Shown: in pieces, positions 1,273 through 15,290 of the stretch
How the letters are laid out: each line of letters begins with the position of its first letter
Position numbering within the stretch: the stretch's first letter is position 1
NCBI GenBank assembly: GCA_964566925.1
Contig: CAZMIZ010000002.1
Coordinates: forward strand, 8,647-72,646
Source of the DNA: an uncultured Gammaproteobacteria bacterium
Lineage (GTDB): Bacteria > Patescibacteriota > Microgenomatia > PFEM01 > DATLAM01
DNA: 64,000 bases
Direction: 5' to 3'
Made by a program: the position numbers and the translations under genes
Notes under the pieces: generated by a model
Seen by the model: the letters and a program-made list of their open reading frames with translations, nothing else
The model's database searches: none
What the model was told of the DNA's origin: nothing

Positions 1273-1836
1273 ATGATTTCTATAACCGAATTAAGAAACG
1301 GCACCACTTTTCAAGAGGGTGGAAAACCCTTTTTGGTTTTGGATTACAAACACACCAAATTAGGTCGGGGCAAGGCGAATATTAAGATCAAAGTCAAAGA
1401 TCTTCTTTCGGGCCGGATTTTAGAGAAAACTTATATCTCCGGAGCTAAAGTGGAGCCAGTCGAGACCCAAAAGAGGCAGATGCAATATCTTTACCGGGAT
1501 GGAGAAAATTTTGTTTTCATGGATCCGAAAAGCTTTGAGCAAGCTACCTTTTCTTCCAAACTTCTAGGCGAGCAGGGCAGGTTTTTGAAAGAAGGCCAAC
1601 TAGTGTCGATTCTTTTTGGAGAAAAGAAGGCTCTTTTTGTTGAAATGCCAATCGGCGTGGTTTTTACTGTCAAAGAAACCGGTCCCGGCGTTAAGGGCGA
1701 CACGGCTACCAGATCTTTTAAGCCGGCTACTTTAGAAAATAGAGTTGTTGTTAAGGTGCCTTTGTTTATTAAAGTTGGTGACCAGGTGAAGATCGACACC
1801 AGAACCGGTGAATACCTCGAGAGGGCGGGGAATTAG
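1273..1836 (+). CDS. efp: elongation factor P
   Basis: MISITELRNGTTFQEGGKPFLVLDYKHTKLGRGKANIKIKVKDLLSG... matches the EF-P KOW and OB domains. The ATG at 1273 lies immediately after the tRNA-like locus. The tracked ORF start at 1243 would overlap the tRNA. Confidence 0.9.
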   Translation: MISITELRNGTTFQEGGKPFLVLDYKHTKLGRGKANIKIKVKDLLSGRILEKTYISGAKVEPVETQKRQMQYLYRDGENFVFMDPKSFEQATFSSKLLGEQGRFLKEGQLVSILFGEKKALFVEMPIGVVFTVKETGPGVKGDTATRSFKPATLENRVVVKVPLFIKVGDQVKIDTRTGEYLERAGN

Positions 1837-2267
1837 AGGAATAAAAGAATAAGGGCAATGATGATCACTTGAGGGAGAAGGCCCAAGAAAAAGAAATGTT
1901 TGCGATGGAAGCGATGGTGAAGCCGGTACAACTCTTCGGAAAAAGGTAGCTTTATCCCTAAAAATCGAAAGGGCGCATCAAGAAAATCGGGTGCCAAACT
2001 AAGGAGAATTCCCAACCAAAGAAGAGGAGAGAAAGAACGATCTTTTTGGAAGAGAAACCAGGAAACAATTAAGGCGAAGGTAAGCTCGGTAATGCCTAAA
2101 ATTGCCGTTTTTAATCGGCCTCTTTCTCTAAGCTTAGTGCCAAAATCCCAGTGAGGGACAGCATCCATAGCGTAATGAATTAGAAGAATCAAAGGGAGAG
2201 AGAAAAGGGGGCTTTTGACTTTGGTCACAATGAGGCCTCCGGTCAAGGCGTGGGTGGTAGAAAGCAT
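1833..2267 (-). CDS. hypothetical polytopic membrane protein
   Basis: 144-aa ORF with several hydrophobic segments and an HWD...HRFHRKH cluster, convergent with efp. No family recognised. Confidence 0.4.
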   Translation of the reverse strand: MLSTTHALTGGLIVTKVKSPLFSLPLILLIHYAMDAVPHWDFGTKLRERGRLKTAILGITELTFALIVSWFLFQKDRSFSPLLWLGILLSLAPDFLDAPFRFLGIKLPFSEELYRLHHRFHRKHFFFLGLLPQVIIIALILLFL

Positions 2268-2307
2268 GGTAGGAACGAGTATAGAATGGTATAATGAGGG
2301 AAGTCAA

Positions 2308-3096
2308 ATGTACCCAGCTTTGTTAACGATTGGTCCAGTCACGATTTATACTTTTAGCCTTTTTTTGTTTCTAGGGTTTTTTCTGGCTACTTTTCTTATC
2401 TGGCGTCGCTTAAAGGAGCAGGGTTGGCTGGAAGAGAGCATTCTTGACTTTTTGTTTCTGGCTACTTTTTTAGGGATAATTTTTGGACGGATAGTCTTTA
2501 TTGTTACCCATTTTGAGCTCTTTGGCTTTTCCGTAGTCCGTTTTTTCCTAATTAATCGCTTCCCTGGATTTTCTTTTTGGGGAGGTCTTTTAGGCGCCTT
2601 TTTGGCGATGTTTTATTACATTCGTAAAAACCGTTGGGATTTCTGGAGAGTCTTGGACGAAGTGGTTTTTGGCTTGGCCCCTTTTGCTGTTCTTTTTCAC
2701 TTGGGCTGTTTTTTTGATGGTTGTCAATTAGGCAGAGAAACGAGTGCCCTTTGGGGAGTCTTTTTCCCGGGGAGCCTGCTTCGCCGCCAACCAGTTTCGC
2801 TTTTTGAAGCCCTGGCCTTTTTTATTATTTGGCTTTTCTTATTGAGGATTGAGAGGCGCTGGCGGACTTGGGAGTGGTACAAAAGTCATGCTGAAGGCTT
2901 TCTCAGTTTAGTTTTCTTCATCCTTGCTTTTTTCTTTAGTTTTTGGCTTGCATTTTTAGAAGCTGGTAAGGTATACTGGTTATACTTTAAACAGTTATCT
3001 AGCCTAATTTTGGTGGCGGGGGCGGTGGTTCTTCTTTATCGCCTCTCCAGCCGAAAAATAAAAGAAGATTTAAGGCTTGAAAAAAGACTAAAATGA
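2308..3096 (+). CDS. lgt: prolipoprotein diacylglyceryl transferase
   Basis: MYPALLTIGPVTIYTFSLFLFLGFFLA...W..R N-terminus and the Lgt signature region HLGCFFDGCQLGRETSALWGVFFPG. The start was chosen at the internal ATG at 2308, which removes the overlap with the upstream minus-strand ORF. Confidence 0.8.
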   Translation: MYPALLTIGPVTIYTFSLFLFLGFFLATFLIWRRLKEQGWLEESILDFLFLATFLGIIFGRIVFIVTHFELFGFSVVRFFLINRFPGFSFWGGLLGAFLAMFYYIRKNRWDFWRVLDEVVFGLAPFAVLFHLGCFFDGCQLGRETSALWGVFFPGSLLRRQPVSLFEALAFFIIWLFLLRIERRWRTWEWYKSHAEGFLSLVFFILAFFFSFWLAFLEAGKVYWLYFKQLSSLILVAGAVVLLYRLSSRKIKEDLRLEKRLK

Positions 3097-3452
3097 TTAC
3101 CTTTCCCAAAAAATTACTTGAGCCGATTCGGGATTTTCTTTCTCGTGAGGAGAAGCGACTAGAGAAGAGAAAGAAGGTTTTAGAAAAAGAAGATCCTTTT
3201 GAAGATGTTCGGCGCTTGACTGATAATGCCGCTTCAGATGCCGATGCAGCTGAGCAGGCCGGCCACGAAAGGATTACGGCGCTTAAAACCGAGCTTGACA
3301 GAAAGCTAATCCAAGTGAGAAAGGCACTGACAATGATTAAGATCGGCAAATATGGAACCTGCGAAAAGTGTGGCCGAATGATTGACACCGATCGGTTGAT
3401 GATTTACCCCGAAGCCACGGTTTGCGTTAAGTGTAAGAAAAAAGAGGCTTAG
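3093..3452 (+). CDS. DksA/TraR-family C4-type zinc-finger protein
   Basis: C-terminal CEKCGRMID...ATVCVKC four-cysteine finger preceded by a coiled-coil region. Confidence 0.7.
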   Translation: MITFPKKLLEPIRDFLSREEKRLEKRKKVLEKEDPFEDVRRLTDNAASDADAAEQAGHERITALKTELDRKLIQVRKALTMIKIGKYGTCEKCGRMIDTDRLMIYPEATVCVKCKKKEA

Positions 3453-3461
3453 GCCGATTAA

Positions 3462-4184
3462 GTGGAAGCTTCAAATCCGACTCCAAAGATTATTTTTCAA
3501 GACAATTCTCTTTTAGTTCTAGATAAGCCTGCCGGGATGGTGGTTAATCGGACTGAGGCGGCTAAAGGAAAGACGCTTCAAGACTGGATAGAACAAAATT
3601 TCCAGTTTCCAATTTCCGGCTGCCAGTTTCTTCGGAATGGTGTGGTCCACCGCCTAGATAAAGAAACAAGCGGCTTGTTACTAATAGCTAAAACAGAAAA
3701 GGCTTTTAAGGATCTCCAAAAACAGTTTAAAGAAAGAAGGGTGGAGAAGGGGTACCTGGCTTTGGTTCATGGTAGGGTTATCCCAGAAAAAGGAATGATT
3801 GAAGTACCCTTAAGTCGTGTTCCCAGAAACCAGAGGAAAATTGGGGTTTTCTTGGGTGGTAGAAGGGCTCAGACAAGATACCAGACAAGAGAACGTTATC
3901 GAAGAGACTCTGAAGAGTATTCCTTGCTTGAATTAAGGCCTAAAACTGGTCGGACTCACCAAATTAGGGTTCATTTGAAATTTGTTGGTCATCCGGTTGT
4001 GGGTGATGCCACCTATGCTGGCCGGAAAACAGCCCGTCAAGACCGCACTTGGTGTCCACGCCAATTTTTACACGCCTCCCAAATAGGTTTTTTCCATCCA
4101 GAGACTAAGAAGAAGGTAAAGTTTAAATCTTCCTTGGCTTCTGATCTTCAAGCCGCATTGACTCATCTTAGTTCCTTTAGGTAA
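3462..4184 (+). CDS. RluA-family pseudouridine synthase
   Basis: LLVLDKPAGMVV, the VHRLDKETSGLLLIAK catalytic-Asp motif, and GRTHQIRVHL. GTG start. Confidence 0.8.
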   Translation: MEASNPTPKIIFQDNSLLVLDKPAGMVVNRTEAAKGKTLQDWIEQNFQFPISGCQFLRNGVVHRLDKETSGLLLIAKTEKAFKDLQKQFKERRVEKGYLALVHGRVIPEKGMIEVPLSRVPRNQRKIGVFLGGRRAQTRYQTRERYRRDSEEYSLLELRPKTGRTHQIRVHLKFVGHPVVGDATYAGRKTARQDRTWCPRQFLHASQIGFFHPETKKKVKFKSSLASDLQAALTHLSSFR

Positions 4185-7691: not shown

Positions 7692-8414
7692 ATGTCTGGG
7701 CACAGTAAGTGGAGCACCATTAAACGTCAGAAAGGCGTCGAGGATAAGCGTCGAGGCTCAGCCTTTAGTAAGTTATCGCGGGCAATTTCGGTGGCCGCCA
7801 GGGATGGAGCTGATCCTAAGACCAATTTTAAACTTAGATTGGCGATTGAAGAGGCGAAAACGGCCAATATGCCCAAAGAAACGGTTAAAAGGGCAATTGA
7901 ACGCGGTTCAGGTAGGGGAGGGATAGAGACTTTTGAGGAGGCGACCTATGAAGGTTATGGCCCCTCGGGAGTAGCGATTCTAGTTGAGGTTCTCACCGAT
8001 AATAAAAACCGGACGGTTTCTGCTCTCAAGAATATTTTTGAGCGGGGTGGGGGAAACCTGGCTGCACCTGGCTCAGTCGCCTATCAATTTGAAAAGATGG
8101 GGTTAATTACTATTAAGAAACCTAAAGACGTTGATCAGACTCTTCTAGCCATTATTGACTTAGGAGCAGATGATGTAGAAGAGGCGAGTGACGCCATCGA
8201 GGTCTATACCCAACCAGCTAACCTGGCTCAATTTCAGGAAAAACTTCAGACTGCCGGATTTGAAATCTTGGAGAGCCAGATTTTTATGCGCCCTAAGACG
8301 AGTGTGCCTATCAAAGAAAAGAAGCAAGCAGAAAGAATTTTTCGGTTGATGGAGAAATTAGAAGCCGAGGATGATGTTCAAAGGGTCTCTGCCAACTTTG
8401 ATATCGAAGAATAA
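7692..8414 (+). CDS. YebC/PmpR-family transcriptional regulator
   Basis: MSGHSKWSTIKRQKGVEDKRRGSAFSKLSRAISVAAR... is the canonical YebC N-terminus. Start taken at the ATG at 7692. Confidence 0.85.
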   Translation: MSGHSKWSTIKRQKGVEDKRRGSAFSKLSRAISVAARDGADPKTNFKLRLAIEEAKTANMPKETVKRAIERGSGRGGIETFEEATYEGYGPSGVAILVEVLTDNKNRTVSALKNIFERGGGNLAAPGSVAYQFEKMGLITIKKPKDVDQTLLAIIDLGADDVEEASDAIEVYTQPANLAQFQEKLQTAGFEILESQIFMRPKTSVPIKEKKQAERIFRLMEKLEAEDDVQRVSANFDIEE

Positions 8415-8425
8415 CTATTGAGCAG

Positions 8426-9199
8426 ATGATGACCAAAAGACAGAAATTTGTTATCACCACTGCCATTTTATCGGTTGGGCTTTTAGCGATTCAGATCGCC
8501 AATGTTACCTGGCGCTACCAGGCGATTGGTGTTTTAAGCATTTTAACTTATCTTTTGGCGGCCTGGTCGCTCCGGGAAGGTTTAGATGGGATTGAATGGT
8601 TGACCGTTTTGACTTTGCCACCTCTTTTTACGGCCGGGGTTGGCCTTTTTTATTTTTTGTTGCCGGCTCGCTGGTTAACCCGTTTACCGGTAGCGGCCGC
8701 TTTTGGTTTAGGCACTTATGCACTTCTTTTAACAGAAAATATTTTTTCAGTGGCTTCAATCAGAACGATTCAGCTTTTCCGAGCCGCCCAAGCCGTTGGT
8801 TTCTTGCTTACTTTAGTGACCGCTTTTTTCCTTTATGATACGATGTTTTCTTTTCGGCTTTCGTTTTGGGCCAATGCCTTACTAACTTTAATGATCAGTT
8901 TTCCGATTCTTTTGCAAGGTCTTTGGTCAGTCAAATTAGAAAAGAAAATCAGTGGTCAGGTTTGGCTTTATACTTTGGGACTATCTTTGGTTTTAGCTGA
9001 GGCAGCGGTCGTCATTTCTTTCTGGCCAGTGAATATTGCCTCGGGATCACTTTTCCTGGTTTCGGTGATGTATATCATCTTAGGTCTTTCCCAGCAGCAC
9101 TTGGCTCATCGGCTCTTTTCCCGAACGATTCAAGAATATCTAGGTGTGGGACTTGCGGTTTTGGGTATAATATTGTTAACCACTCATTGGGGAGGGTGA
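8426..9199 (+). CDS. hypothetical integral membrane protein
   Basis: 257-aa ORF with 7-8 predicted TM segments. No family recognised. Confidence 0.5.
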   Translation: MMTKRQKFVITTAILSVGLLAIQIANVTWRYQAIGVLSILTYLLAAWSLREGLDGIEWLTVLTLPPLFTAGVGLFYFLLPARWLTRLPVAAAFGLGTYALLLTENIFSVASIRTIQLFRAAQAVGFLLTLVTAFFLYDTMFSFRLSFWANALLTLMISFPILLQGLWSVKLEKKISGQVWLYTLGLSLVLAEAAVVISFWPVNIASGSLFLVSVMYIILGLSQQHLAHRLFSRTIQEYLGVGLAVLGIILLTTHWGG

Positions 9200-9200
9200 A

Positions 9201-9731
9201 ATGGATGAGAAGAAAGGGCGATCAGAGGGACGGCCTCCAAAAGAAAAAGGACCTAAATCTTATGTGATGAAGGTGCCACCTTGGGCAGTTCTTTATGCAG
9301 ACCCTTTAATAGGAGTAACTTCTAAGGTGGGTTTAGTAAGAGATTTTTTTTCTTTGGAAGAGGTAGAGCCTCCAGAAGGAAAGGCCGAAAGACCAGTTGA
9401 AGAATTCGCCATGATCCGCTGTCTTCAGAGAGAAAGGCGGACCATCGGAGAAGAGAATGGAAGAAAGATTCGGTGGGATCGGGTCGAGTTCCAGGTGATG
9501 GAGAGAAACAACGGGGATGAGTTTCCAGTGACTAAATGGGGTTATTTTGCCACTCTAGAGCGGACAGAAGAAGAAAAGGAAGCCAGGGAGCCATTTCAAT
9601 ATTTAGGCGAAGATGGTTTTCGCAGCGGTCCGAGATTAAAAGAGAAACCTGCTCCGGGACTTCAACATCAATTTGTTATTTCTAAAAAACTAGCGCCCGT
9701 TGGCCAAAGAGGAAGGCCACTAAAAAGATAA
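9201..9731 (+). CDS. hypothetical protein
   Basis: 176-aa charged ORF with no recognisable motif, immediately 5' of the long ORF-free region. Confidence 0.35.
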   Translation: MDEKKGRSEGRPPKEKGPKSYVMKVPPWAVLYADPLIGVTSKVGLVRDFFSLEEVEPPEGKAERPVEEFAMIRCLQRERRTIGEENGRKIRWDRVEFQVMERNNGDEFPVTKWGYFATLERTEEEKEAREPFQYLGEDGFRSGPRLKEKPAPGLQHQFVISKKLAPVGQRGRPLKR

Positions 9732-10040
9732 TAAAATTTCTTCAAAAATTTTGATAAAGGTCTTCACTAGGGGAGAGAGGGGATTCACCAAGGCCGGAAA
9801 AAGGGAAATATCCTATAATAATTATCATGTTTTCACGAAAACTGCCCGATAATTTTCACGAAACGGCAGAAAATTTGTTAGACTGCCAATCACCGGAAGT
9901 TAGGCATAACCACTCCTCTCGGATGTTGATCTTTGAGTGAGAGACTTAGGTCAATTACTCCCTCTTCAGCTCCTTCCCATTTTTTTCGTTATCTAGGCAC
10001 GAAAAAGGGTAAAAAGGGCGATAAATAGCCAAAATCTCTT

Positions 10041-10060
10041 GATATAGTTTGATATAGTTT
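10041..10060. repeat. direct tandem decamer gatatagttt x2
   Basis: Exact 10-nt tandem duplication inside the ORF-free region. Confidence 0.6.
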
Positions 10061-10225
10061 CCAAAAGAGCATTGTGGATAAGTAGAGAGGTCCTTATTCA
10101 GTAATCGTTAATGGGGGTGATGAGGTGATGGTGGTCCCCAGACGATCTTTAAGAAGAGTTGGGGCTCTTGTTCCCCAGAGGAGGCCTATCTTATGGAAGA
10201 GGGTAAGAGAGTGGCGTCCTGACTT

Positions 10226-10255
10226 AATGTCGCACAATAATACTTTTGCGACATT
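10226..10255. promoter_or_regulatory. perfect 9-bp inverted repeat AATGTCGCA-N12-TGCGACATT
   Basis: Seen directly in the sequence. The ATGTCGCACAATA motif recurs at 10754-10766, next to the recombinase promoter. Confidence 0.5.
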
Positions 10256-10738
10256 ATGGAGAGGGCTTCTCTAGAGAAGAGGTTGGAATAAAAATCTTAA
10301 TGCCTTCTTATTAGGGCCTAATGATTAACTATCCTTTATTTTAGAATTTTTTATTTCTTATTTCTCTATTTTTGGCTGCTGACCAGTTTTTTTGTTTTTC
10401 AAATAAAACCCGAAAGAGCCCACTCCCCTACTATAGGATATATGTCTAAAAAACTGGAACAAAGTTTGCCAAAAAATAATAAAAAAATCAAAAAATAGCC
10501 AAAATTTTATTAAGCAAACGATTAGTTAGTCGCCCTGTTTTCAAATCAAGCCTTAGAAAGCATCTAAGAGGCTGGTCAGCTTCAAGAAGAATCGTTTTAA
10601 ACCTTAAAAAAGAGAGACTAAATGGAAATTTCAATCTTTTGGGAGAAATTTTTGGTCACCTCTGTTTATTTTTCTAAAAATTTTTGATTAGGCTGATTGC
10701 CGGATAATGATCGGCGAATAAACGTTAATAAAAAATTT

Positions 10739-10795
10739 ACCGACATTATTTTTATGTCGCACAATATTGACACTGAGCTGGTCGAAGTGTAAACT
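10739..10795 (+). promoter_or_regulatory. candidate promoter/operator of the recombinase gene
   Basis: Inverted repeat CGACAT-tattttt-ATGTCG (10741-10759), then TTGACA (10767-10772), a 17-nt spacer and TAAACT (10790-10795). The ATG at 10804 gives a very short leader. Confidence 0.4.
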
Positions 10796-10803
10796 ATAGA
10801 TTA

Positions 10804-11763
10804 ATGGCTGCCCCAAAAGAAAAAAAATTACCGAGAAGCGAGTTAGATCAATTAATTGAAGAGTTTTTAGAGCATTTAGAAATTGAACGCCAGTGTTCCC
10901 CTCTTACTATCCGCAATTATCGTCATTATCTAGGCCGTTTTTCTGATTGGTTAAAGAAAAATAATCCCAAGGCTAAGGCGAGCTCAATAAATTTGGAAAT
11001 AATCAAAAAATATAGGGTATTTTTAGCCCGATTTATAGCCCCAAACGATGCCCCCCTTTCGCGTAGCACTCAAAGCTATCATGTGATAGCCTTGCGCGCT
11101 TTTTTGCGCTGGCTGGCCAAGCACGATTACCCCACCCTTTCACCTGAAAAGGTCGATCTTCCTAAAAGCGAATCACGTTCTTTAAAATTCCTTTCGGCCG
11201 ATCAAATGGAACATTTTTTAAACCAGCCGCGGATCTCAACTGACATCGGCTTGCGGGATAAGGCAATTTTAGAGGTTTTGTTTTCCACCGGCCTCCGAGT
11301 TAGCGAATTAGTTAAACTTAATCGTGATCAAATCGACTTAAAAAGACGAGAATTTGGCGTAGTGGGCAAAGGCGGCCGGGCTCGAGTTGTTTTTCTGTCG
11401 GAAAGAGCGGTTAAATGGTTGAAAAAATATCTTGACTCTCGTCAAGATTCTTGGAAGCCTTTATTTATTCATTATAAAGGCGGTAAAGACGAAGGCAAAG
11501 ATGGTGGGAGGATGAGATTAACCGCCCGTTCGGTTCAGCGAATCGTGGAAAAATATTCCCAAAAAGCCAAACTACCAGTTAAAGCTACTCCTCATGTCAT
11601 TCGTCATTCTTTTGCCACCGATCTTTTGGTGGCCGGCGCTGATCTAAGAGCGGTTCAAGAGATGTTGGGCCACAAAAACATTTCCACCACCCAGATTTAT
11701 ACTCACGTCACTAACCGCCAGCTCCGTTCAATCCATCAGGCGTTTCATGGCAAAGGGAGATAA
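10804..11763 (+). CDS. tyrosine site-specific recombinase, XerC/XerD-like
   Basis: N-terminal SAM-like core-binding region (LTIRNYRHYL). C-terminal catalytic region ATPHVIRHSFATDLLVAGADLRAVQEMLGHKNISTTQIYTHV carrying the R..H..R..Y motif. Confidence 0.8.
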   Translation: MAAPKEKKLPRSELDQLIEEFLEHLEIERQCSPLTIRNYRHYLGRFSDWLKKNNPKAKASSINLEIIKKYRVFLARFIAPNDAPLSRSTQSYHVIALRAFLRWLAKHDYPTLSPEKVDLPKSESRSLKFLSADQMEHFLNQPRISTDIGLRDKAILEVLFSTGLRVSELVKLNRDQIDLKRREFGVVGKGGRARVVFLSERAVKWLKKYLDSRQDSWKPLFIHYKGGKDEGKDGGRMRLTARSVQRIVEKYSQKAKLPVKATPHVIRHSFATDLLVAGADLRAVQEMLGHKNISTTQIYTHVTNRQLRSIHQAFHGKGR

Positions 11764-11764
11764 T

Positions 11765-12460
11765 TTATCCTGAGCTTGTCGAAGGAGGGGAAGTAACTTG
11801 GTTTTCCTCATTCTCAAGTAGCCCTAATTCGCTGGCTTTTTTAATTGCATCCGGTATATTATCAACTCCCAGTTTGGCAAGGATCCCACCGGAGCCTGGC
11901 TTCTCTCTTCTTGGCGAATAAAGGCTGTTATGAACGCCTGAGTAAGTCATATCTAAACATTGGGCAGTTTTTCTAATCGATTTTCCTTCTGACATCGCTT
12001 TTAAAATTTCTAGCTGACTAGGAGCAAAAGGAAATGCAGCGGCCTTGGCTTCCCTAGCTCGAGCTCTTGATTCTAAGATTTTCTCTAAAAGCTCGTCTAG
12101 TCTTTTGCTGGGTCTTGAGTTTTCATAGACCTTGGATTGAACTGCTTCCAGGAATTTTTGGTGGACAGTTTCTAGGGAAAATTTTTCATCTTCGAGATAA
12201 GAAGAAATGAGGGCCCACCAAAAACAAATAGTGACCACTGCTCTTCCTATTCTTCCTGGGCATTCCAGCTTACTAAAAATCGAGCTTGTATGATTTTTAA
12301 CCGTGCCGTTTTTGATCCCAAGTGCTACCCCGATTTCCTCGTTAGAGAGGCCTTTGGCCATAAGCGCGCAGACACTGAATTCGGTCTCAGAAAATGGAGA
12401 GAATTTTTCTTTCTCAGGTTGATGATTAAAATTTTCTGGTACTTCTATTTCTGCTGACAT
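11765..12460 (-). CDS. transcriptional regulator with two LuxR/GerE-type HTH domains
   Basis: First HTH: CALMAKGLSNEEIGVALGIKNGTVKNHTSSIFSKL. Second HTH: ILKAMSEGKSIRKTAQCLDMTYSGVHNSL...ILAKLGV. No receiver or autoinducer domain is visible. Confidence 0.65.
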   Translation of the reverse strand: MSAEIEVPENFNHQPEKEKFSPFSETEFSVCALMAKGLSNEEIGVALGIKNGTVKNHTSSIFSKLECPGRIGRAVVTICFWWALISSYLEDEKFSLETVHQKFLEAVQSKVYENSRPSKRLDELLEKILESRARAREAKAAAFPFAPSQLEILKAMSEGKSIRKTAQCLDMTYSGVHNSLYSPRREKPGSGGILAKLGVDNIPDAIKKASELGLLENEENQVTSPPSTSSG

Positions 12461-12491: not shown

Positions 12492-14480
12492 TCAGATAAT
12501 AAAATCATAGGGATATCGACTGCTACCAGCGGCCAGGTAGAATTTCCTTTTCCATTTAGCGTCAAAATAAACTTCTCCCTGTGGCTTATCTTCTCTAGAA
12601 AGCCTTTTGGCTAGACGGAAATCGAATTTAGACCCTAATCCCCAAGTGGGCATCAGGAAAAAGAGAGTCGAAACCCGGCTTCTAATGATCAGGTTTCGGA
12701 TTTTTCTATTACCTACAGTCGTGGCGGTTAATTGATCCGGGATGGCGAGGTAATGTCCGATTTTCGGCCAGACTAACCAGCGCATGGCCGTAGACATGTC
12801 AACCTGGCTGACAAGTTCAATAAATTTGGTTGCTCCTAATCTCAAACCTACCGGGGCAATCCAGCCGCCGGTGAAACCAAGGGCAGCCCGTTGAAGGCGG
12901 GCTTCAGGCAAAGCCAGAGCACTCAGATAACTGCCGATCTCAAAAAAATCGGCCCCCCTGGCAATGACCTGGTAGGTTAGGAAAGTGGCAAGATAAACAC
13001 TCATTTCTTTCCGGCTAAGACTTTGTAGAGAAACTTGTTTTTTTAATTTTTCCAACTCTTCAATGGTGATTGCCCCATGTTTTTGGGTATTTTTGGCTCC
13101 GCCAAGGACAAAATAGCGAGTGATTTCTTCCAAATTTCGGAATTGGGGGTCGGTGGTTAGTCGTTGCATCCAGGCTGGCATGATCCTGCCACCGACAGTA
13201 TTAAGAATTAGGCTGGAGTTTGATTCTAACTGGTTGTTTATCCCGATTCTTTCTTTTTCTTGAAGAGTTTTGACCTGTCTTTTTCTGAACCTTTCCCAAG
13301 ACGCCTCTCTTCTGGCCGAAATAAACAAGCCATGACTTGCCCATAGACGGTATTGTGTATCGAGGAGGAACATCACCGGTCGGATGCCGAACAAGCGGGC
13401 CAGAAGAAGAAGCTTTTCTGACTCTTCTATTTTTTCAACTACTGATTCGGGAACATCGCCTGATTCCCTCCAGGCTTGGGCCCATTGATCTTTGACAGGG
13501 AGTTCGACAAGCCAGTCATGCTTCTCAAGAAGAGCATTATAAAGCGATAACCAACCTTGAAGTTCTTGATAGCCTTCTTCGCCCAGATTTTCAATCAGGC
13601 GAACCTGATTATTTTCTTCGGTAATCGCTTCTCGGCAGGCGGAGACATGAATTTTGTTAAAAGCTGGGGCGGGTTCACCATCTTTAGCTGTTTGTTGACA
13701 GATTTTTTTATGGAAAGGGAAATAAAAGGTAGGGACAACATAACCGCTAGGCCTCATTTTTATCCCCGGATGGACATCTAACCAGCAGACCCTTTTTTGA
13801 CCGTTGCCGCCGATGAGAACTAGATTTGATGGGGCCAAAGGGTTGTCTTGATGAATTTGAGCCGAAGGTTCGACTAAGCCAAACTGGCGACAAAATTCGG
13901 TCAAGTCGGCCTGGGCTTGGAAAATCTGGTTGATTTCCTCAAAAGTCTTAGGCGGTCTGAAACCATCAATTTTTTCGATTACTTGGCAATAGCCGGTTCC
14001 GGGAATGAAAGTGTAACCAACTGAATCAGGAAGATAATAGGTTTCTCCAAAATAACCATGGACCAATAATCTGAGGATTTTCTGACCAACATGTTCAAGC
14101 TGAGCTTCGGCTTCAAAGTGGCGCGGAAAAAAAGGATGAAGTCTTTCATGGGCCTTTCGCAAAAGCCTTAATGGTATCCCGTATCTTGATTTAGTTGGTA
14201 GAGCGGTTTTGATTACCCAAGGAAGCTCTGATAGCTTGATGACGTCTCCTCGGAATTGACCCTGGTCAACGCTTTCTATCTCACCGGCCATTGGTTGGTA
14301 TTGACAAGATCCCTCTGGAGACAGAGAATTTACCGTAAAAACAAGATTTTCTCCCTTATGGAGAGGGGCTTTTTCATAAATACCTCTTCCTGTTTCAATA
14401 TTGTTAATCATAGCAAATAAAAAACCCAAGCTTGGCTTGGGCATTGGGGCTATTTTAATATAGAAGGGGTTGATTTTCAA
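12492..14480 (-). CDS. large hypothetical protein (662 aa), no recognised family
   Basis: Long uninterrupted ORF, 16 nt downstream of the Rmt-like methyltransferase gene and 32 nt upstream of the LuxR gene, so probably co-transcribed with both. Weak kinase-fold-like stretches (LVHGYFGETYYL...IEKIDGF, WLDVHPG) are not diagnostic. Confidence 0.6.
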   Translation of the reverse strand: MKINPFYIKIAPMPKPSLGFLFAMINNIETGRGIYEKAPLHKGENLVFTVNSLSPEGSCQYQPMAGEIESVDQGQFRGDVIKLSELPWVIKTALPTKSRYGIPLRLLRKAHERLHPFFPRHFEAEAQLEHVGQKILRLLVHGYFGETYYLPDSVGYTFIPGTGYCQVIEKIDGFRPPKTFEEINQIFQAQADLTEFCRQFGLVEPSAQIHQDNPLAPSNLVLIGGNGQKRVCWLDVHPGIKMRPSGYVVPTFYFPFHKKICQQTAKDGEPAPAFNKIHVSACREAITEENNQVRLIENLGEEGYQELQGWLSLYNALLEKHDWLVELPVKDQWAQAWRESGDVPESVVEKIEESEKLLLLARLFGIRPVMFLLDTQYRLWASHGLFISARREASWERFRKRQVKTLQEKERIGINNQLESNSSLILNTVGGRIMPAWMQRLTTDPQFRNLEEITRYFVLGGAKNTQKHGAITIEELEKLKKQVSLQSLSRKEMSVYLATFLTYQVIARGADFFEIGSYLSALALPEARLQRAALGFTGGWIAPVGLRLGATKFIELVSQVDMSTAMRWLVWPKIGHYLAIPDQLTATTVGNRKIRNLIIRSRVSTLFFLMPTWGLGSKFDFRLAKRLSREDKPQGEVYFDAKWKRKFYLAAGSSRYPYDFII

Positions 14481-14495
14481 GGAAAACTATGAAGA

Positions 14496-15290
14496 TCATG
14501 GTTTTTCCAAACAAAAAGCCATTTCCGTGGGGAGCTTGATTTCTTTGACCGGCCAGTCCCTATCCTTAAGGATGCGACTAATAAGTTTCCGGTTTTGCTC
14601 CACCAAGCTGACCTTAGTATGTAAGCTCTCCGTAGGCAAGGTAATAACAATCTGTTTAACTTGGAGGGCATCCAGTAAAGGAAGGGTAATCCCTTCTCGG
14701 CGTTTTTCAAAACGATGAACCTCTTTCATAATCAGGGCTAAATCTGCTTTTTGATCCGGATATCTCACCAAAATGTCTTGAGCCATGGCTAATGGTGGCA
14801 ATCCCTGAAGAACAAAATAGTGGTTTAGAAACTCGACTCGCTTTTCGTGAATGTCAAAAGCAAAATATTGGGTGGTTAACGGCAGTTTCATCCAAGGAAA
14901 AGACAAGGGATGAAGGCCGCAGGCCAGATCCAGGATGACTTGGGGTTGGCCAGTAGTTTTGAAGAGTTTTTGATAAAACTTGTCTAAAATTGGTAAACGT
15001 TCTTTAGCAGAAGCGTGAGCCGCCATAATTTGGGCACAAGCTTTTTTAATCTCTTCCCTGTCTTTGGCAGTAAAAGCTTGGTCAAGGTATTTCTTAGCTT
15101 TTTCGTAGTCAGGATCACCAAGATAAGAAGCGACGATATTGTGGAGTTTTCTTTTAGCCTCTTTAATCGCCTCTTTTTGTTTTTTGCCTTTTCCGATTTC
15201 TGTTTTAATTAAATCCCTAATTGTTTCTTCGGCCGTTGACTGGTATTTCTTGGATTTTTTGATTTTAGCAACCCAGCTATCGAGATTCAT
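14496..15290 (-). CDS. 16S rRNA (guanine1405-N7)-methyltransferase, ArmA/RmtB/FmrO family (aminoglycoside-resistance type)
   Basis: Colinear matches to ArmA/RmtB: IKKSKKYQS, KRKLHNIVASYL, HASAKERLPILDKFYQKLF, the VILDLACGLHPLSF SAM-binding motif, YFAFDIHEKRVEFL, ADLALIMK and IVITLPTESLHTK. Confidence 0.75.
   Translation of the reverse strand: MNLDSWVAKIKKSKKYQSTAEETIRDLIKTEIGKGKKQKEAIKEAKRKLHNIVASYLGDPDYEKAKKYLDQAFTAKDREEIKKACAQIMAAHASAKERLPILDKFYQKLFKTTGQPQVILDLACGLHPLSFPWMKLPLTTQYFAFDIHEKRVEFLNHYFVLQGLPPLAMAQDILVRYPDQKADLALIMKEVHRFEKRREGITLPLLDALQVKQIVITLPTESLHTKVSLVEQNRKLISRILKDRDWPVKEIKLPTEMAFCLEKP

Follow-up and report, generated by a model that had tools for sequence, protein, structure and literature searches.

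The protein-kinase-like (PKL) fold is found in Hanks-type kinases, in RIO proteins, in the UbiB/ABC1/COQ8 group and in aminoglycoside phosphotransferases (APHs) and choline kinases. In kinases the catalytic asparagine directly precedes strand beta7, as seen by comparison with PKA; the corresponding loop reads H-G-D-L-S-E-x-N in RIO proteins, which are associated with small-subunit maturation, and H-G-D-x4-N in APHs, which are acidic proteins, and the hallmarks of UbiB are an alanine-rich nucleotide loop and a KxGQ lid motif. Here we compare with these systems the product of a minus-strand gene located between an FmrO-family methyltransferase-like gene and a LuxR/GerE-type gene in a stretch of bacterial DNA of 64,000 nucleotides (contig CAZMIZ010000002.1, hereafter the window). 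On balance we favor the view that it is a stand-alone, lineage-restricted, enzyme-like protein, composed of a divergent PKL domain of about 255 residues and a helical C-terminal domain (C-domain) of about 340 residues, with no link to FmrO. Family-level membership failed for Pkinase, APH, ABC1/UbiB and RIO, and the protein is best described as an atypical member of the PKL superfamily, whose distinguishing marks are a loop of the form H-x-x-N-P-x4-N, a variable catalytic base, an insert between strand beta3 and helix alphaC and a large novel C-domain. Its parts are given below, with residues numbered according to the longest open reading frame (ORF), in which the conserved start methionine is M24.

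12492..14411, minus strand: most likely the coding sequence of the kinase-like protein, 639 amino acids (ORF, family-conserved start)
14412..14480, minus strand: 5' extension of the longest ORF (TTG 14480; database ATG 14444), probably a non-coding leader (start-codon comparison)
13605..14375, minus strand: predicted PKL domain, residues 36-292 (AlphaFold2 domain model, Foldseek)
14241..14264, minus strand: equivalent of the glycine-rich loop, QGQFRGDV, residues 73-80 (family alignment)
14208..14210, minus strand: Lys91 (V-I-K-T), the beta3 ATP-anchoring lysine (K in 64/66)
13824..13859, minus strand: equivalent of the catalytic loop, QIHQDNPLAPSN, residues 208-219 (alignment and model)
13776..13778, minus strand: Asp235 (C-W-L-D), equivalent of the metal-binding Asp of DFG (invariant, 66/66)
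12576..13604, minus strand: predicted all-helical C-domain, about 340 amino acids, residues 293-635, with an insert at about 321-440 (AlphaFold2 model, alignment)

Fold and active-site residues

The AlphaFold2 model of the full-length protein, built on a 70-sequence alignment, displayed a mean predicted local distance difference test (pLDDT) of 87.5 and a predicted template modeling score (pTM) of 0.86, and residues 36-292 modeled alone reached 94.2 and 0.90, respectively. In both models the secondary structure assigned by DSSP runs in the order beta1, glycine-rich loop, beta2, beta3 with its lysine, alphaC, beta4, beta5, hinge, alphaE, catalytic loop, beta7, beta8 and metal-binding Asp, which is the order of the PKL fold. 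The first three strands span residues 59-73, 79-83 and 88-91; the glycine-rich segment joins strands one and two, and Lys91 closes strand three. An insert of about 30 residues leads to alphaC, a long helix (123-144), and this is followed by strands 153-159 and 163-169, the hinge, helix alphaE (180-199), the loop 208-219 and strands 220-223 and 230-233, with Asp235 directly after. When the full model was compared with the PDB using Foldseek, all 50 matches listed were kinase-fold proteins (best E 0.02), including PknG, Rio2 (probability 0.96, the highest listed), PknI, APH(2''), capreomycin phosphotransferase, PI4KII-alpha, YopO and Bud32. The same was true of the 50 matches listed for the domain model (best E 0.0076; template modeling (TM) scores 0.22-0.39), among them the LAMMER-like kinase CmLIK, WbdD, PknS, the kinase domain of a class III lanthipeptide synthetase (CurKC), APH(2''), Bud32, ROP5, TYK2 JH2, NahK and LicA. 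In the viral structure library BFVD, kinases made up nearly all of the 50 matches listed, with a putative UbiB at the top (E 0.008). Because the three structure searches agree, together with topology and motifs, we hold the assignment of the modeled domain to the PKL fold to be very probably secure; because the TM-scores are low, the models would make the protein an outlier of that fold.

Residue conservation was counted in the 70-sequence family alignment, in which gaps give totals of 66-68. The glycine-rich loop has the family consensus GGGF[FY]GxV, with G78 present in 66/66 sequences, and beta3 carries the motif V-[IV]-K91-T. Position 129 in alphaC is acidic (D or E in 56/66), the hinge reads Q-V-x-E169 (E169 in 65/68), a motif G201-x-x-E204 lies between alphaE and the catalytic loop, and the loop itself follows the pattern Q208-[IV]-H210-x-x212-N213-P214-x4-N219, in which N213 is invariant (67/67) and N219, located directly before beta7, is found in 66/67. 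Beyond D235 the conserved residues are P238-A239, F-x-F-H257 and F-N-x-I-H278, and the family alignment displayed no APE motif. K91, N219 and D235 are all present in the window protein, and its position 212 is an aspartate (I-H-Q-D), the three close relatives having E, E and D. An insignificant hhalign alignment to a genuine Hanks kinase, encoded in locus L006 beside a family member, pairs MELIEG with QVIEKIDG, IHRD with IHQD, the catalytic Asn with N219 and the Asp of DFG with D235. Based on this pairing and on the position of N219 directly before beta7, D212 is placed at the HRD aspartate and N219 at the catalytic asparagine, with a two-residue insertion between them, so that the Asp-to-Asn distance is 7 residues and not 5; the register is not fully settled. 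Under this register or the alternative one considered below, the nucleotide- and Mg-binding set is conserved in the family and the classical base is not universal, and the window protein possesses the full set except for a weakened glycine-rich loop.

A kinase-like character had been hinted at in an earlier note on this DNA, made from the sequence alone. The hint as to fold has stood, on the model, the Foldseek searches and the motif conservation; two of the three motifs quoted for it had been misassigned. LVHGYFGETYYL (residues 139-150), taken as HGD/DFG-like, runs from the tail of alphaC into beta4, and IEKIDGF (168-174), taken as a degenerate HGD/DFG, is the hinge; WLDVHPG (233-239) alone belongs to the active site, as the equivalent of DFG. 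The check that had been proposed, Foldseek on an AlphaFold model, gave kinase-fold proteins in 100 of 100 PDB matches listed, at weak E-values.

In order to relate the family to the described kinases, all 70 members were compared with Pfam at E up to 1, and no match was obtained to Pkinase (PF00069), APH (PF01636), choline kinase, ABC1 (PF03109) or RIO1 (PF01163). Matches to SHOCT (six members, best E 0.0011) and an hhalign match of the segment G-x-I-x-x-E-E to the N-terminus of RsmF were both judged to be short-motif noise. Hanks kinases (PknG, PknI, PknS, PknA) dominate the structural matches listed, and the family resembles them in the segments G-G-G-F-[FY]-G-x-V, V-I-K and I-H-x-D, in the Asn before beta7, in the succession of beta8 and Asp, and in the canonical register given by the insignificant hhalign alignment. 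In contrast to Hanks kinases, it has neither an APE motif nor the alphaF-alphaI core, the place of which is taken by a different helical domain, and its catalytic Asp is variable. With RIO proteins (Rio2, PDB 4gyi) the window family shares a trimmed kinase fold without a recognizable APE segment, an insertion between the beta3 lysine and alphaC, and the conserved nucleotide-binding Lys, Asn and Asp. Nevertheless, TM-scores to RIO are only 0.18-0.30, the family loop H-x-D-N-P-x4-N is two residues longer than that of RIO proteins, and the family has its helical C-domain of about 340 residues whereas Rio2 has an N-terminal winged helix; moreover, the family is bacterial, from the candidate phyla radiation (CPR) and Chloroflexota, and the structural match to Rio2 is weak.

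The family, its C-domain and its start codon

The inability of the earlier note to place the protein in a family from its sequence was borne out, since the protein has no match in Pfam, NCBIfam, PADLOC, PHROGs or PDB sequences. A word-indexed search of 5.8 billion clusters returned only three homologues (56, 46 and 45% identity), and an exhaustive HMMER scan of 1.84 billion representatives returned 67 proteins at E <=1e-3, 57 of them at E <=1e-10. Most of these relatives are 500-580 amino acids long and match in two blocks, residues ~40-320 and ~440-625; the extra insert of about 100 residues between them (about 321-440) is peculiar to the window sub-lineage. Given three homologues at 45-57% identity and some 67 more distant cluster representatives, the ORF is a real gene. 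In a word-indexed protein collection a 70-sequence profile recovered only the same four close proteins, and a single typical member performed better; the search seeded with one such member gave 56 proteins, all named 'hypothetical protein' and none with a Pfam domain, with the source labels Roizmanbacteria, Microgenomates, Patescibacteria, one Actinobacteria metagenome-assembled genome (MAG) and unclassified 'bacterium' MAGs. Species-representative loci, found with a tight 10-sequence alignment, come from genomes of Microgenomates, Beckwithbacteria, Roizmanbacteria, Woesebacteria, a Patescibacteria MAG and one MAG labeled Gammaproteobacteria, and one family cluster derives from Chloroflexota MAGs. 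On these data the proteins constitute an unnamed family, mainly of Microgenomates-group CPR bacteria and some Chloroflexota, for which Pfam and NCBIfam hold no model, which makes it a candidate for lists of atypical kinases and pseudokinases. The genomes of CPR bacteria are tiny, and a large share of their genes lack an assigned function; for one of these genes a fold and a probable ligand (ATP) are now given. Each locus holds a single copy of the family gene; a 532-amino-acid protein in locus L003 was considered as a paralogue of the kinase-like protein and rejected on testing.

The C-domain has no recognizable relative, and among the PDB matches listed for the whole model none was to a non-kinase protein. 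In view of the high pTM, the model suggests that this domain packs on the kinase domain as one body. Its residues conserved in the family are R547, P572, G575, Q583, R600, P611, G614, G616 and E620, and three helices of moderate hydrophobicity keep their places in the alignment (about 504-515, 537-545 and 571-577). The Kyte-Doolittle values of the C-terminal helices reach 2.0-2.2 in a Chloroflexota member versus only about 1.1 in the window protein, and peripheral membrane association and a hydrophobic core are both candidate explanations of the pattern. The isoelectric point (pI) is 9.7 for the C-domain and 9.1 for the whole window protein, with a family median of 7.8 and a range of 5.4-9.6.

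As described in the earlier note, the window holds a minus-strand ORF of 662 codons between 12492 and 14480, running from TTG 14480 to the stop codon at 12492-12494. The start at TTG 14480 is probably wrong and M24, encoded by ATG 14411, the true one, because locus L002 has an in-frame TAG immediately 5' of the equivalent ATG, locus L003 has no other start codon 5' of it, family members share this start, and residues 1-30 have pLDDT values below 50 in the AlphaFold2 model. The close homologues P0003 and P0004 start at the methionine equivalent to M24, and the database gene call (NCBI/Logan; P0001, 650 amino acids) begins at M13, ATG 14444. The product from ATG 14411 most likely has about 639 amino acids. 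A nucleotide motif conserved in the 5' extension, CAATG[CT]CCA, is read in different frames in the window and in locus L001.

Possible activity of the protein

If the kinase-like reading is correct, ATP-Mg would be bound in the cleft between the lobes and, with Asp212 present, the gamma-phosphate would probably be transferred to a substrate in this genome. The substrate might be held by the segment that follows the DFG equivalent (F-x-F-H, F-N-x-I-H) and by the helical domain, and it would not be an aminoglycoside. Since the C-domain is basic and partly hydrophobic, the partner may be anionic or associated with the membrane or envelope, such as a lipid-linked intermediate, an RNA or a protein. 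As the position of the catalytic base varies, the activity shared by the whole family may be nucleotide binding, hydrolysis or a non-canonical transfer rather than classical phosphotransfer.

Several observations weigh against regarding the protein as an enzyme of this kind. Every structural E-value is weak (0.0076 or worse), no single match being significant by the tool's own threshold, and the sequence links of the family to any kinase family, by Pfam, by profiles against PDB sequences and by hhalign, are all insignificant: hhalign gave a probability of 0.6% with the Hanks kinase of L006, 0.4% with E. coli UbiB, where only beta3 was aligned, and found nothing with APH(3')-IIa, a query sequence entered by hand. 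In the window sub-lineage the glycine-rich loop, QGQFRGDV, has lost two of the canonical GxGxxG glycines, and this degeneration may impair catalysis or even ATP binding. Position 212 is D in 35 of 66 representatives, E in 8, K in 7 and N in 7, the remainder having G, R or other residues. A weak hmmsearch match to the kinase BUB1 (E 0.053) is collinear for the glycine-rich loop and lysine and for the catalytic blocks, and it sets N213, not N219, on the catalytic Asn, which leaves the register of the loop ambiguous. Finally, what is proposed for the substrate and for the C-domain is pure inference.

Two readings depart from classical catalysis and keep the fold. The first is that the remodeled loop I-H-x-[variable]-N-P-x4-N and the helical domain together perform a non-canonical nucleotide-dependent reaction, candidates being an ATPase switch, AMPylation, and phosphorylation of RNA or of a lipid-linked intermediate of the envelope. 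The invariant Asn-Pro of the family loop is, to our knowledge, lacking in canonical kinases, and a variable base beside it suggests chemistry outside the textbook kinase mechanism; if true, such a reaction would account for a catalytic Asp that one third of the members can do without. We put this forward tentatively and regard it as rather unlikely. The second, to which we would give a similarly low but appreciable chance, is that the protein is a pseudokinase or nucleotide-dependent switch, in which the fold is kept for ATP binding or as a scaffold, as in RIO-type ATPases or non-catalytic pseudokinases. About one third of the representatives have a non-acidic residue in place of the base (K, N, G, R and others), the glycine-rich loop of the window sub-lineage is degenerate, the protein evolves faster than its neighbors, and the leading structural matches would fit: Rio2, the highest-probability PDB match listed, is an ATPase with a phospho-aspartate intermediate, and the pseudokinases ROP5 and TYK2 JH2 had the top TM-scores of the domain search (0.39). 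However, K91, N219 and D235 are near-invariant, which is typical of proteins still using ATP-Mg, the window protein retains Asp212, and no member matches RIO1.

A distant UbiB/ABC1-like protein, that is, a membrane-associated atypical kinase or ATPase acting on lipids, is in our opinion very unlikely. The family has in common with UbiB a PKL domain with hydrophobic helices C-terminal to it, three of which stand at fixed positions and reach transmembrane-like values in some members; a similar size (about 520-560 amino acids versus 546 in E. coli UbiB); the beta3 motif V-[IV]-K-x-x-x-P; and a long spacing from this lysine to the acidic residue of alphaC, and a putative UbiB heads the BFVD matches. 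Nevertheless, its nucleotide loop is glycine-rich and not alanine-rich, no KxGQ was seen, ABC1 is not matched by any of the 70 members, the hhalign comparison with E. coli UbiB is insignificant, and the solved COQ8/ADCK3 structures are not among the PDB matches listed. In addition, the C-terminal helices of the window protein reach a hydrophobicity of about 1.1 at most, and CPR bacteria generally lack quinone biosynthesis.

Genomic context and further features of the window

The flanking genes had been correctly identified in the earlier note as an FmrO-family methyltransferase gene and a LuxR-type gene, all on the minus strand, and Pfam supports both; this locus also occurs in SRR14817123. 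The spacers reported as 16 and 32 nucleotides measure 15 (to the FmrO-like gene) and 31 (to the LuxR/GerE gene) for the longest ORF, and with the start at ATG 14411 the former increases to 84 nucleotides.

14496-15290, minus strand: FmrO-family 16S rRNA (G1405 N7)-methyltransferase-like gene, 264 amino acids, upstream (Pfam FmrO, E 1.2e-47)
14414..14442, minus strand: terminator-like site, hairpin GCCCAAGC-CAA-GCTTGGGT and T-run, ending 3 nucleotides 5' of the ATG
11765-12460, minus strand: LuxR/GerE-type gene, 231 amino acids, two helix-turn-helix (HTH) modules, downstream (Pfam)
10804..11763, plus strand: XerC-like tyrosine recombinase gene, convergent, the sole conserved neighbor in the close lineage (synteny)

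The 84-nucleotide spacer contains a hairpin with a stem of 8 bp (14442-14424) followed by a T-run, and folding of the 101-nucleotide region around it gave z = -2.9. In L001, L002 and L003 an equivalent hairpin and T-run, with different stem sequences, lie 2-12 nucleotides before the ATG (L001 ~128-152; L002 ~1509-1533; L003 ~1641-1662), and each of the four close loci, the window included, has an AT-rich -10-like box (TAAAAT, TATAAT or TATACT) about 10 nucleotides upstream. The spacing of the hairpin is constant to the ATG of the kinase-like gene and not to the upstream genes, which in L001, L002 and L003 are different or distant, and no hairpin with T-run was found in more distant family members. 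RNAalifold on the four hairpins revealed no covariation; MAFFT had misaligned the stems, and the hairpins were consequently read one by one. As the upstream genes vary and the element is limited to close relatives, it appears to belong to the 5' end of the kinase-like gene, where it could serve as an insulating terminator, an attenuator or a leader structure; whichever role applies, its presence would argue against simple coupling with FmrO.

The loci of other family members point in the same direction. No FmrO homologue was found by tblastn and Pfam in any of 16 other distinct family loci, within the DNA available. The genes directly beside the family member change from locus to locus: they include XerC in L001 and L003, fumarase and a Pkinase gene in L006, UvrC and a holin-like gene in L008, glycosyltransferases with Wzy in L009-L011, a response regulator and UvrD in L012, MetRS in L013, an M23 peptidase and XerC in L014, a sigma factor two genes upstream in L015, SmpB and a ComF-like gene in L016, a GNAT gene two genes downstream in L018, L11/L1 in L023, and DprA and TopA in L024. 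In L002 the family gene (1536-3350) lies among a tRNA (~1186-1262), a fragment of a TraG/VirD4-like coupling protein (3-902) and another integrase (3520-3993), only 28% identical to the XerC of the window, and this copy may be on an integrative element. An all-against-all BLAST of the neighboring ORFs showed a single family to recur, that of the tyrosine recombinase (five loci), and on it the large unannotated upstream proteins of L003, L015, L016 and L018 were rejected as a partner family; by these comparisons the kinase-like gene has no conserved partner gene.

In L009 (3788-14315, and also in L010 and L011) the family gene is on the opposite strand inside a cluster of GT4/GT2, Wzy_C and PMT_2 genes. 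This cluster is the only context that hints at a role in the cell envelope, and it recalls, in one lineage only, polysaccharide kinases of the WbdD type.

Within the close lineage, XerC is 70% (L001), 80% (L003) and 68% (L014) identical to that of the window, and the window and L014 also share DUF5656 (51%), YebC and a 241-amino-acid gene in the same order, so that the xerC neighborhood is inherited synteny within a Microgenomates lineage. In these three loci the kinase-like gene abuts the gene for XerC or for the M23 peptidase, with neither LuxR nor FmrO. With the window protein, the kinase-like proteins of these loci share only 57, 45 and 34% identity, and their gene thus evolves much faster than its syntenic neighbors. 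In L014 it is split into two overlapping ORFs (7956-8693 and 8497-9573), which indicates either a frameshifted pseudogene or an assembly error. In the LuxR/GerE-type protein the GerE module covers residues 22-71 and the other HTH ~145-181, and neither a receiver nor a ligand-binding domain is present. Its gene is missing at the corresponding position in L001, L003 and L014 and thus represents an insertion, specific to this lineage, that separates the kinase-like gene from xerC. The adjacency of the kinase-like gene to FmrO and LuxR is unique to the window genome, and its place between them would reflect local rearrangement and not an operon of shared function.

The FmrO-like protein itself scored 186.6 bits with the NCBIfam model Rmt_gen, under the cutoff of 250. 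Its nearest relatives, at 44-47% identity, are encoded on three metagenome contigs, and the kinase-like gene was found in none of the three. The FmrO relatives and the genes that accompany them lie at these positions:

L020: 107-877 and 850-2364
L021: 67-873 and 806-1513
L022: 1-480, 453-1970 and 2029-2796

In L020 and L022 the same-strand gene downstream of the FmrO relative encodes an RsmF/RsmB-type 16S rRNA m5C methyltransferase, L022 carries an RsmE-type gene as well, and in L021 two FmrO paralogues stand in tandem. RsmF modifies C1407 and RsmE modifies U1498, both of which are near G1405 in the decoding center. This company suggests that the FmrO relatives are part of a housekeeping set for modification of the 16S decoding center and not acquired resistance genes, in accordance with a preprint in which CPR 16S methyltransferase-like genes are considered unlikely to be primarily aminoglycoside-resistance determinants (bioRxiv 10.64898/2026.07.13.738296), and it supports the CPR FmrO-like methyltransferases as intrinsic rRNA-modification enzymes.

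The earlier note had the kinase-like gene riding with the methyltransferase and, from there, proposed a second resistance determinant, an APH-like modifying or aminoglycoside-sequestering protein co-expressed with the FmrO-type enzyme. The two genes do adjoin on the same strand, APH(2'') and capreomycin phosphotransferase occur among the weak structural matches, and APH enzymes use this fold; in addition, APHs and choline kinases (APH(2''), Cph, NahK, LicA), as well as WbdD, resemble the family in having a helical substrate-binding region after the DFG equivalent in place of the protein-kinase C-lobe. Yet the APH matches are no better than those to protein kinases (TM 0.3 or less), neither the Pfam nor the hhalign comparison recovered an APH, the window protein is basic whereas APHs are acidic, the Asp-Asn spacing is 7 and not 5, and the family C-domain is three times larger. 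The co-occurrence check that had been suggested, of homologues with FmrO-family genes, was negative in both directions (0/16 and 0/3), a conserved terminator-like hairpin stands between the two genes, and the preprint doubts a resistance role for such methyltransferase-like genes. We consequently regard a resistance function as highly improbable, and the adjacency to an 'Rmt/FmrO-like' gene should not be taken as a resistance island. Synteny independent of the methyltransferase was instead found in L001, L003 and L014, although the protein showed no homology to a known housekeeping enzyme family.

Farther out the window carries genes for Tgt, GyrA, a DHH phosphoesterase and GyrB, and it has the content of an ordinary small-genome CPR chromosome, with aminoacyl-tRNA synthetases, RecG, PBP1, a type IV pilus cluster and DUF5656. 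A biosynthetic remnant, which had also been proposed, does not agree with this content, no biosynthetic genes having been found nearby in the window by Pfam. Lastly, the recombinase genes adjoining in five loci, the company of the L002 copy and the rapid divergence of the protein might point to a defense component, as once suggested, or to mobile-element cargo, but there is hardly any probability of this, as neither PADLOC (E up to 1) nor PHROGs gave a match, in the window, L001, L003 and L014 the recombinases are XerC orthologues (68-80%) amid the core genes YebC and DUF5656, the wider family sits among core genes (SmpB, MetRS, L11/L1, TopA, UvrC), and the GC content of 0.42-0.45 across 12-16 kb equals that of the rest of the window, without compositional anomaly.

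Beside xerC, an ORF-free gap of 1.07 kb (9732-10803), in which Rfam gave no match, contains a 28-nucleotide stretch, TAATGTCGCACAATAATACTTTTGCGACAT (10225-10252, core 10229-10252). It is 100% identical in a Microgenomates MAG (L014 13164-13191) and 96% identical in L001 (4153-4178), in non-coding DNA beside xerC in all three genomes; its flanks are not conserved, and the adjoining XerC proteins are only 68-70% identical. The core, unique in the window, is an inverted repeat GTCGCA/TGCGAC around a 12-nucleotide center, and the stretch is a candidate for a dif-like site of Xer recombination or for a small structured RNA. The gap is preceded by a plus-strand ORF (9201-9731) encoding a Lys/Glu/Arg-rich protein of 176 amino acids, which has no Pfam or PHROGs match and resembles only faintly (25% identity, E 1.6e-4) a 151-amino-acid ORF at the corresponding place in L001.

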